Origin: an uncultured Oscillospiraceae bacterium
Lineage (GTDB): Bacteria; Bacillota; Clostridia; Oscillospirales; Oscillospiraceae
Assembly: GCA_944383195.1 (NCBI GenBank)
Contig: CALWOP010000177.1
Coordinates: forward strand, 58,390 to 122,389
Reading direction: 5' to 3'
DNA length: 64,000 nt
Shown piece after piece: positions 25,732 to 25,805 of this stretch (the first letter of the stretch is position 1; the number at the start of each line of letters is the position of its first letter). The notes beneath the pieces are model-generated. The model did no database searches. It was given only the letters and a program-made list of their open reading frames with translations, and was not told the DNA's origin. The translations under genes were made by a program, and so were the position numbers.

Positions 25732-25805
25732 TCCGGCGTCGTTCAATGGCAGGACCGGGGATTCTAAATCCCTATATGAGAGTTCGAATCTCTCCGCCGG
25801 TGCCA
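25732..25805 (+). tRNA. amber-suppressor tRNA, anticodon CUA (25764-25766); U1.U72 mismatch, G73, A37
   Basis: A clean cloverleaf. Acceptor tccggcg/cgccggt; D-arm gtt-caatggcag-gac; anticodon stem gggga/tccct with loop ttCTAaa; variable region atat; T-arm gagagttcgaatctctc; G73; CCA encoded. Confidence 0.75.

Follow-up and report, generated by a model that had tools for sequence, protein, structure and literature searches.

Phages in which the amber codon TAG is read as glutamine, and which carry their own suppressor transfer RNAs (tRNAs), are known (10.1101/2021.08.26.457843; PMC10607447; PMC9523058). These code 15 phages include the crAss-like, Lak, Agate/Sapphire-type and phAss-1 groups. 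They have tRNA-rich, low-GC genomes of 100-200 kb with a phage-encoded tRNA of anticodon CUA, and their in-frame TAG codons are concentrated in structural, lysis and homing-endonuclease genes and are rare in replication genes, the code-change genes themselves being written in the standard code. The same holds for the 64,000-nucleotide stretch of DNA described here, referred to as the window (contig CALWOP010000177.1 of assembly GCA_944383195.1, positions 58,390 to 122,389 of the forward strand), in which TAG most probably stands for glutamine and no phage aminoacyl-tRNA synthetase was seen. The element under study is its CUA tRNA gene at positions 25732-25805, which we consider with considerable confidence to be a functional phage amber suppressor of tRNA-Gln ancestry that inserts glutamine at UAG, thereby allowing the TAG-containing genes to be translated in a standard-code host. 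It differs from the described code 15 suppressors in three respects, namely a consensus host-type promoter, a conserved unpaired 1:72 position, and a physical coupling to a homing endonuclease gene.

Three other described systems bear on these features. The Escherichia coli amber suppressors that insert glutamine, which are supE tRNA-Gln(CUA) and derivatives of tRNA-Trp, tRNA-fMet and tRNA-Ser, share with the window tRNA the combination of a CUA anticodon (U35), G73, and a weak or absent 1:72 pair, which directs charging by glutaminyl-tRNA synthetase (GlnRS) (PMC9976931). They differ from it in having G2-C71, G3-C70 and U38 in place of C2-G71, C3-G70 and A38, and whereas they are point mutants of host tRNAs, the window tRNA is a natural phage gene that evolves as a family. 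The second system is SegB of phage T4, a GIY-YIG enzyme encoded in a tRNA cluster that recognizes a T-arm motif and drives the preferential inheritance of the neighboring tRNA genes (PMC2330249); SegB homologs are enriched next to tRNAs (PMC13096335). The window likewise contains a free-standing GIY-YIG gene beside tRNA genes, polymorphic in its presence and co-inherited with the neighboring tRNA. In contrast to T4, however, the co-converted marker would here be the only UAG decoder detected in the genome, and thus an essential recoding function would be aboard. Note that the likeness to SegB is one of arrangement and inheritance pattern, from which we infer cleavage and homing. Finally, the TGA-recoded Jade phages possess a "code change module" consisting of a suppressor tRNA, TrpRS and release factor 1 (RF1), located upstream of the lysis cassette (10.1101/2021.08.26.457843). 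The window also has its suppressor tRNA in a small operon written in the standard code, but with neither synthetase nor release factor. The partners are instead a 108-aa Cys-rich protein and the homing endonuclease, and the operon is not beside the lysis genes (the lysin gene, at 50152, is about 24 kb away).

An amber suppressor in a tRNA-rich, TAG-to-glutamine recoded phage of about 150 kb is thus of a known kind, although the lineage is new. A megablast search of deposited phage genomes gave no match, and the DUF2828 protein of the window is no more than 39% identical to proteins found there; the lineage is known only from IMG/VR and metagenome contigs. In the literature on recoded phages, no description was found of a conserved 1:72 mismatch, of a consensus early-type promoter, or of the linkage of a suppressor allele to a homing endonuclease. 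These three features lift the case above routine annotation without making it categorically new.

The gene was called by ARAGORN as a 74-nucleotide tRNA with the triplet CTA, as the earlier reading of the sequence alone (hereafter the sequence-only reading) had expected, at tRNA positions 33-35 (window positions 25764-25766). The Rfam model RF00005 matched 25732-25802 over its full length with a score of 52.9 bits (gathering score 29) and a local E-value of 5.9e-11. In the acceptor stem, U1 and U72 are unpaired and are followed by six Watson-Crick pairs, C2-G71 to G7-C66. The D-stem contains four base pairs, G10-C25, U11-A24, U12.G23 and C13-G22, and closes on the D-loop AAUGGCA. A five-base-pair anticodon stem that includes G27.U43 presents the loop UUCUAAA, the variable loop is AUAU, and the T arm reads GAGAG-UUCGAAU-CUCUC. 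Both G73 (25802) and the CCA end are encoded in the gene. The sequence-only reading had thus described the loop, the variable loop, the T arm, G73 and CCA correctly, and had erred in giving the D-stem three base pairs. The minimum free energy fold gives back the cloverleaf, but its stability relative to shuffled sequences is unremarkable (z = -1.72). Folding energy alone therefore does not set the tRNA apart from shuffles, and the evidence for it comes from the covariance model and from covariation.

ARAGORN attached the label tRNA-Pyl to the gene. This label reflects the anticodon only. A tRNA-Pyl is recognized by a 6-bp anticodon stem, a 3-nt variable loop, a small D-loop without GG, a T-loop lacking the consensus, and a pylS/pylBCD context. 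The window tRNA has a canonical fold, in which the D-loop contains GG, the T-loop reads UUCGAAU, the anticodon stem has 5 bp and the variable loop 4 nt, and no Pyl genes were found among the Pfam matches of the larger proteins of the window.

Relatives of the locus were retrieved with the DUF2828 protein encoded 3 kb downstream (28878-30383), which yielded 80 related loci on IMG/VR contigs of 100-200 kb; loci are designated below by L numbers where they must be told apart. A tRNA(CUA) is present in about half of the 80. Twenty distinct class-I CUA tRNAs were aligned (alignment A1) and scored on the cloverleaf. Of the cells, 94% are paired, both-sided changes occur in 17 of the 21 pairs, and the covariation score is 0.69, values that were reached by none of 500 shuffles and that slid controls came nowhere near. 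Together with the ARAGORN call and the Rfam score, this confirms that 25732-25805 is a genuine, structurally constrained tRNA with the anticodon CUA. The sole exception to the pairing is position 1:72, which is unpaired in 17 of the 20 tRNAs (U.U, C.U, U.C or C.C) while the other acceptor pairs are intact, and the odd first "pair" is thus a conserved feature rather than an error. G73 and CCA are invariant in all twenty, as is G10-C25, whereas pair 2:71 is CG in ten and GC in ten and 3:70 is mostly CG. A true mismatch at 1:72 is found in 19 of 24 CUA tRNAs of the family as against one of 35 tRNA-Gln, and the combination of G73 with a weak or absent first pair occurs in the family only among Gln, Trp and CUA tRNAs. 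The argument that the sequence-only reading had built on U1.U72 and G73 is strengthened by this conservation across the CUA tRNAs of the family.

That the genome uses TAG as a sense codon is evident from its genes. All genes of the window lie on the plus strand, and the analysis was confined to that strand; a six-frame comparison of open reading frame lengths under three stop reassignments was uninformative, spurious frames being dominant. When TAG is read as sense, about 35 plus-strand genes that are broken by TAG as a stop become continuous, with 1-16 in-frame TAG codons each. The 85 genes called in this manner end in TAA (73) or TGA (12). Among the TAG-containing genes, those for PhoH, UDG and ThyX were confirmed against solved structures, and others were assigned by Pfam as an HNH nuclease, DUF2726-type proteins, four GIY-YIG endonucleases, a lysin and Mtd_N tail-fibre-like proteins. 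The description of the suppressor as "cognate" in the sequence-only reading is accordingly borne out, since the same genome has in-frame TAG in genes that include PhoH, the lysin, the tail-fibre-like proteins, ThyX, UDG and the homing endonucleases. At the level of the family, the presence of a CUA tRNA is linked to in-frame TAG (p = 0.011). The codon is unevenly distributed: TAG accounts for 47% of the glutamine-type codons in mobile nuclease genes and 26% in tail-fibre and lysis genes, as against 4% in genes of replication, nucleotide and RNA metabolism (late versus metabolism genes, p = 1.6e-7). The window needs to be annotated with translation table 15.

Two further observations concern the use of TAG. 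The genes at 13577-14065 and 27939-28841 close with TAG followed directly by TAA, which could be either a C-terminal glutamine or a TAG stop backed by TAA during suppression. In addition, the TAG-bearing genes are nearly devoid of CAG; that at 59194-60105, for example, has 16 TAG, 10 CAA and no CAG codons, whereas several TAG-free genes are rich in CAG (1 CAA and 12 CAG in 28878-30383; 7 CAA and 20 CAG in 30786-33215). TAG thus seems to have replaced CAG in the TAG-rich genes, which suggests either an origin of TAG from CAG or the coexistence of two gene pools that differ in history.

Among the possible meanings of TAG, glutamine is the one that protein alignments support best, and this assignment agrees with the other recoded phages. 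The Walker-B region of PhoH reads DEA-TAG-N where the structure 3b85 in the Protein Data Bank (PDB) has DEAQN, and in 120 homologs the five TAG columns of PhoH are occupied by glutamine in 120, 120, 119, 64 and 5 sequences. Some of the database homologs had themselves been called with table 15, and codons were therefore checked directly. Relatives that are 98% identical carry TAG at these sites. In L084, which is 81% identical and has no TAG in its PhoH gene, the three invariant sites are CAA, CAG and CAA, and L084-L088 are alike in this respect. In the endonuclease encoded at 51993-52679, the YIGxS motif, in which x is TAG, matches YIGQS/YIGQT of its paralogs. A likelihood test was also conducted in which all window proteins were aligned by tblastn with the related loci under the standard table; TAG then shows as "*" and is ignored, such that the test is not circular. 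Over 57 TAG columns, the substitution-profile log-likelihoods are -158.1 for glutamine, -184.1 for lysine and -187.5 for glutamate. The glutamine assignment of the sequence-only reading is thus supported, the TAG columns aligning with glutamine in relatives that use the standard code.

The tRNA itself points in the same direction. Its raw identity to the two tRNA-Gln genes of the window is 64% and 57%, in keeping with the statement of the sequence-only reading that its body is unlike theirs. At the level of isotype profiles, however, the opposite is observed. A profile was built with nhmmer for each isotype after the anticodons of the 666 family tRNAs had been masked, and the CUA tRNA scores best with that for Gln (37.1 bits), followed by Arg (27.2), Trp (24.3) and Cys (22.6). 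The Gln profile is also the best one for most of the class-I CUA tRNAs in relatives, and the window tRNA has the 74-nt length, the 4-nt variable loop and the AAUGGCA D-loop in common with the tRNA-Gln(CUG) of the window. It is highly improbable that the CUA tRNA inserts another amino acid such as Trp, Lys, Glu, Tyr or pyrrolysine. The tRNA-Trp of the family also has G73 and a weak first pair, and a few CUA tRNAs of relatives score best with Trp or Cys profiles, but the Gln profile gives the window tRNA 13 bits more than the Trp profile does, and tryptophan is not among the aligned residues of the TAG columns. Lysine is the second most frequent residue in those columns and trails glutamine by 26 log-likelihood units, and columns of invariant glutamine in PhoH are TAG here. 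As for pyrrolysine, which the ARAGORN label would suggest, the D-loop, T-loop (TTCGAAT), anticodon stem and variable loop are all unlike those of tRNA-Pyl, and no PylS-like gene turned up in the window.

The manner in which the tRNA is charged can be considered in light of what is known for E. coli GlnRS, whose determinants are G73, U1-A72, G2-C71, G3-C70, G10, U34/U35/G36, A37 and U38; when tRNA-Trp, tRNA-fMet and tRNA-Ser are converted to amber derivatives they accept glutamine, and pairs 1:72 and 3:70 are critical (PMC9976931). Judged by this set, which may not be that of the host enzyme, the window tRNA has G73, U1, G10, U35 and A37. The weak determinant U1-A72 is represented by U1 only, which faces U72 and forms no pair. 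From the sequence, an open 1:72 would plausibly be equivalent to U1-A72 or better for GlnRS. The tRNA would be charged by a host enzyme, most likely GlnRS, and the pre-opened first pair may make up for the loss of G36 in its recognition. There are weak hints as to the host, namely Bacillota-type ribosome binding sites (RBSs), a lysin with an SLH domain, and phage-sized contigs binned with metagenome-assembled genomes of Eubacterium, Oscillospiraceae or Lachnospiraceae.

Many Bacillota lack GlnRS, and the tRNA could alternatively be charged indirectly, a non-discriminating glutamyl-tRNA synthetase (GluRS) or GluRS2 producing Glu-tRNA(CUA) that the amidotransferase GatCAB then converts, in which case the decoded residue would still be glutamine. 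For GluRS2 and the amidotransferases the first pair is a recognition element, U1-A72 being accepted and G1-C72 rejected (PMC9976931), and the CUA tRNA keeps U1 and is without the G1-C72 antideterminant; one crAss-like phage has also been reported to encode an Asp/Glu-tRNA amidotransferase (PMC12386605). We regard this route as unlikely. The main determinant for the GluRS of Bacillus subtilis is a modified U34, but the CUA tRNA has C34, and the family also encodes a tRNA-Gln(CUG), which argues that the host can charge glutamine tRNAs with C34. Moreover, GatCAB is reported to need the U1-A72 pair, which is absent here, and no amidotransferase gene was found in the window.

A 1:72 mismatch, C1xA72, is a hallmark of bacterial initiator tRNA. 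The strong conservation of the mismatch in an otherwise fully paired acceptor stem might reflect a role outside of synthetase recognition, such as a lowered affinity for EF-Tu, a lowered sensitivity to peptidyl-tRNA hydrolase, or a shield against a host nuclease that targets tRNA. The tRNA-repair-type enzymes encoded in the window (an RNA ligase, an RlaP-like nucleotidyltransferase and phosphoesterases) suggest that the phage meets tRNA-targeting defences. Such a role nevertheless appears quite doubtful, since the other initiator hallmarks are not kept (most family members lack the three consecutive G-C pairs at 29-31:39-41), internal TAG codons require that the tRNA act in elongation, and the mismatch co-occurs with G73, the GlnRS discriminator.

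Beyond the class-I CUA tRNAs, many relatives carry long CUA tRNAs of 88-95 nt whose variable region bears an extra arm of 16-30 nt. The hairpin loop of this arm resembles the anticodon loop of tRNA-Gln, YU-CUG/UUG-AR (for example CUCUGAA, CUUUGAA and UUCUGAG). The motif is found in 26 of 33 distinct sequences (59 IMG/VR loci), most of the others being one-base variants, and the 3-6-bp stems covary. The arm may be a decoy or a second anticodon-like arm for glutamine identity. No description of such tRNAs was found in the literature, and they may be more novel than the suppressor finding itself. A similar arrangement is seen in the 91-nt tRNA-Ile(UAU) of the window (6797-6887), where the extra-arm loop CAGAUAA is one base off the Ile(GAU) anticodon loop CUGAUAA; the corresponding loop at L014:206-299 is CAGAUUA. 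The principle may be that of the long CUA tRNAs, in which a look-alike of the standard anticodon accompanies a non-standard one. In the 87-nt tRNA-Cys genes the loops are instead of the GNRA type.

The context of the CUA tRNA is that of a small operon. The sequence-only reading had placed the gene away from the main tRNA island, but the gene is not solitary. The CUA tRNA is the second member of a four-tRNA cluster, Ser(UGA)-Sup-Leu(CAA)-Cys(GCA), whose order is conserved in the closest relatives, L001-L007. L001 has identical or nearly identical Leu and Cys tRNAs, whereas its CUA tRNA is about 30% diverged from that of the window. The promoter follows directly after tRNA-Ser, with the gene for the 108-aa protein between it and the CUA tRNA. 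Both had been noted in the sequence-only reading; the sigma-A-type promoter matches the consensus at all twelve positions (Table 1), and the Cys-rich open reading frame exists and is conserved as a protein. The promoter is conserved in L001, and the block of homology with L001 begins exactly at the -35 element. No terminator-like site was found between the promoter and the CUA tRNA, and no gene of the operon contains TAG. The 108-aa protein is 75-91% identical in L001-L007, with synonymous changes in its gene, and in every case the gene is located some 90 nt ahead of the CUA tRNA; identical copies are present on 19 public contigs. It has no match in Pfam, PHROG, NCBIfam or the PDB and is confined to the closest relatives, and thus no role in the code change can be assigned to it. 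In the window as a whole, 14 plus-strand sites match TTGACA-17-TATAAT at 11 or more of the 12 positions (range 2051-61037), all of them intergenic and many in the tRNA island; nine of the 14 read TTGAAA-17-TATAAT and lie mostly within the island. These sites are probably genuine promoters for host RNA polymerase, with the suppressor being made alongside the other phage tRNAs, and it appears that promoters of the host sigma-A type are in wide use by the phage.

Immediately downstream of the CUA tRNA lies the gene for a free-standing GIY-YIG homing endonuclease. Its RBS, AAAGGAGG, at 25813-25820, begins 7 nt past the CCA of the tRNA (the sequence-only reading had given 4 nt). The protein matches Pfam PF01541 GIY-YIG (2e-11), PHROG homing endonuclease families (1.9e-28) and TIGR01453 (71.5 bits; cutoff 56), and only its catalytic domain of ~95 aa is recognizably like known endonucleases. 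None of its 11 glutamine-type codons is TAG, as compared to 47% in the other nuclease genes (p = 0.0024), which is compatible either with a recent arrival or with expression that is independent of suppression. A group I intron context was considered for the gene and set aside, given that it lies past the CCA end and that Rfam found no intron in the window.

The gene is not a fixed neighbor of the tRNA. It is absent from L001-L007, where the junctions are precise and the CCA leads straight into the RBS and start of the gene homologous to that at 26824. Exact-pattern searches for the window tRNA, hereafter allele A, in IMG/VR and in JGI metagenome contigs gave no match. Contigs with allele A were instead found through exact-protein look-ups of its neighbors, which led to human-gut assemblies encoding an identical 108-aa protein. 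The endonuclease is present in 11 of these contigs (L099, L101, L104 and L107-L114), all with the allele A tRNA as in the window, and is absent from six (L100, L102, L103, L105, L106 and L115), all six of which have CUA tRNA allele B (tggggag...) or C (tgcggag..., as in L102 and L115). The clearest comparison is with L105, which lacks the endonuclease and matches the window with 98.4% identity as far as 25729 and with 98.5% identity from 26802 onward. Between these flanks it carries a different, 75-nt CUA tRNA, allele B, that is ~30% diverged from allele A. Since the flanks are near-identical right up to the borders while the tRNA differs and the endonuclease gene is lacking, the unit of exchange is 25730-26801. 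The endonuclease-carrying contigs themselves differ in their flanks, being 92.7% (L108) to 100% (L101) identical to the window in the two cases compared, and their downstream gene content varies. The 152,188-bp contig ERZ28614505 scaffold_169 agrees fully with the window over 24000-28642. In other relatives, related endonuclease genes lie 35-100 nt downstream of tRNAs, twice directly after a CUA tRNA (L058 and L043). The adjacency described in the sequence-only reading is therefore real, but it is that of a mobile insertion, absent from the closest relatives and linked to tRNA allele A. The notion that the endonuclease always replaces the tRNA allele was abandoned, as in another lineage L057 and L058 have the same CUA allele and only one of them has an endonuclease beside it.

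By analogy with T4 SegB, this pattern is likely to be the signature of intronless homing with co-conversion. The association of the endonuclease with allele A could instead reflect the shared ancestry of one clone, in which a single insertion occurred into a lineage that already had allele A. Several of the contigs come from one study series, ONAT22-1, so that they are not independent, and the L057/L058 pair represents an insertion without a change of allele. A purely clonal origin nonetheless seems rather unlikely, for flanks free of the endonuclease remain 98.4-98.5% identical up to the borders of a 74-75-nt tRNA that is ~30% different, and the endonuclease contigs vary in their flanks and yet all have allele A, which requires recombination at the cassette borders.

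Taken together, the preferred mechanism for the suppressor would proceed as follows. Host RNA polymerase would co-transcribe the CUA tRNA with the 108-aa gene, and RNase P would release the tRNA, the 3' end of which would need only trimming because CCA is encoded. A host synthetase, most likely GlnRS, would charge it, with U35, G10, A37, G73 and the open first pair offsetting the lost G36, and the charged tRNA would compete with RF1 at UAG. Its accumulation may then gate or boost the synthesis of late and lysis proteins and of endonucleases, in line with the Borges model. As for the GIY-YIG gene, it stands outside of the decoding machinery and encodes a free-standing homing endonuclease that has carried allele A along. 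The cassette takes the place of other CUA-tRNA alleles in genomes that are otherwise near-identical, the likely mechanism being that an endonuclease-free allele is cleaved and the break then leads to co-conversion.

Several points weigh against this account. In some relatives with a CUA tRNA, the aligned genes contain no TAG. The window tRNA lacks four of the E. coli GlnRS determinants, having C2-G71 and C3-G70 rather than G-C pairs, A36 and A38, although A36 is unavoidable in a tRNA that reads UAG. If the host is without GlnRS, charging would have to occur via GluRS and GatCAB. The consensus host-type promoter suggests early rather than late expression, which weakens a simple "late switch", although the bias in gene class is still consistent with the published view of recoding as a means of damping or delaying late, lysis and endonuclease proteins. 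With regard to the cassette, L057 and L058 share an identical CUA tRNA with an endonuclease present in only one of them, and the contigs with and without the cassette are not phylogenetically independent.

Two of these points, the promoter, which implies early and strong expression, and the relatives that combine a CUA tRNA with TAG-free aligned genes, would also be expected if the suppressor served mainly to perturb the host by reading through host UAG stops and thereby weakening its defence or physiology. Such a role has been suggested for crAss-like phages with "unused" suppressor tRNAs (PMC12386605). For the window it is improbable as the main role, given that the lysin, tail fibres, PhoH, ThyX and UDG cannot be made without UAG decoding. 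Because these essential-looking genes need it, the phage must decode its own TAG codons, and an effect on the host would be only an added consequence.

A more far-reaching interpretation, which we put forward tentatively and hold to be less probable than not, joins these strands. The tRNA and endonuclease would together constitute a self-mobilizing "code-change cassette", in which the open 1:72 and G73 form an evolved determinant for hijacking GlnRS despite the lost G36, the extra arm being an alternative solution in the long-armed relatives, where it may display a look-alike of the tRNA-Gln anticodon loop (YU-CUG/UUG-AR). The endonuclease may cut rival CUA-tRNA alleles in co-infecting relatives and substitute its own cleavage-resistant, functional allele.

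The positions of the features discussed, together with those of tRNAs in relatives, are collected in Table 1.

Table 1. Coordinates of features in the window and, where prefixed by an L number, in related loci.
Feature	Position	Strand	Basis
Amber suppressor tRNA, anticodon CUA, tRNA-Gln-like, allele A	25732-25805	+	ARAGORN, Rfam, covariation, Gln profile
5' leader of CUA tRNA	25643-25731	+	Far better conserved than the tRNA itself, window versus L001/L005 (alignment A2)
Sigma-A-type promoter, TTGACA-17-TATAAT, extended TG	25274-25302	+	12/12 match, only one in 18-32 kb
Gene for 108-aa Cys-rich protein, 7 Cys, no TAG, first in operon	25316-25642	+	Conserved protein
Free-standing GIY-YIG homing endonuclease, 324 aa, no TAG	25825-26799	+	Pfam, PHROG, TIGR01453
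Mobile cassette: tRNA allele A and GIY-YIG gene	25730-26801	+	Borders 25729/25730 and 26801/26802
tRNA-Ser(UGA), first of mini-cluster	25183-25270	+	ARAGORN; same order in L001-L007
tRNA-Leu(CAA) and tRNA-Cys(GCA)	27581-27657 and 27775-27861	+	ARAGORN; same order in L001-L007
PhoH/PIN ATPase, 5 in-frame TAG	48852-50108	+	Structure and homolog alignment
Endolysin (6 TAG) and holin-like membrane protein (4 TAG)	50152-51868	+	Gene table; Pfam Phage_lysozyme2, Amidase_2, SLH
Tail-fibre-like proteins (Mtd_N domain), 2-5 TAG each	19397-24449	+	Pfam; TAG positions are TAG or Q in relatives
GIY-YIG endonuclease, 16 in-frame TAG	59194-60105	+	Gene table, Pfam
Other TAG-bearing GIY-YIG endonucleases	7922-8647, 37649-38398, 51993-52679	+	Gene table, Pfam
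Long CUA tRNAs	L008:8234-8324, L011:3072-3160, L019:2832-2926, L036:6276-6365		
Long CUA tRNAs	L052:4564-4654, L054:6905-6995, L070:1115-1206, L076:3153-3241; also L142-L200		
Four-base-anticodon or UUA tRNAs	L061:3676-3749, L062:4384-4457, L063:3761-3834, L067:3499-3572, L010:625-700, L025:1109-1181		ARAGORN

Several other features of the window and its relatives were observed. At 17083-17198, Rfam reports a tRNA (51.2 bits) with about 43 extra nucleotides within the anticodon arm that was not called by ARAGORN. No tRNA-Tyr was called in the window, and relatives have a tRNA-Tyr near this position; the element could be an intron-containing or interrupted tRNA. A transfer-messenger RNA (tmRNA) is located at 14323-14637 (Rfam, 108 bits) with the tag DNAYFENHLAA and a terminal TGA, and the tmRNAs of the relatives have other tags. 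Among the tRNAs of the relatives, ARAGORN also reports four-base anticodons (uaaa, ugaa) and one UUA, an ochre reader. Just downstream of the tRNA mini-cluster, at 28878-33215, a DUF2828/DUF7788 protein is encoded beside an 809-aa protein with Major Vault Protein shoulder/repeat and SPFH (Band 7) domains, and both genes are TAG-free and CAG-rich. They are followed at 33836-47151 by a TAG-free block of genes with RNA-repair-type and NAD-salvage-type functions, which include an RlaP-like nucleotidyltransferase, phosphoesterases, an RNase T-like exonuclease, an RNA ligase, an isochorismatase/nicotinamidase-like protein, a PRPP-synthetase-like protein and NAPRTase. The composition of this block suggests counter-defence against tRNA-targeting and NAD-depleting systems.

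The three features that distinguish this suppressor each bear on a broader issue. The conserved unpaired 1:72 together with G73 provides a concrete, single-nucleotide hypothesis for how a host synthetase charges the suppressor, a question left open in the recoding literature, and the consensus host-type promoter bears on whether recoding acts as a timer for late genes. The homing endonuclease tied to one suppressor allele points to a code-change gene that the members of a natural phage population exchange in the form of a mobile cassette, and if the tentative interpretation given above is true, the key to the TAG-to-glutamine code would itself be a homing element, spreading or exchanged between phages. 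Such cassette exchange matters for how recoding spreads and is maintained.

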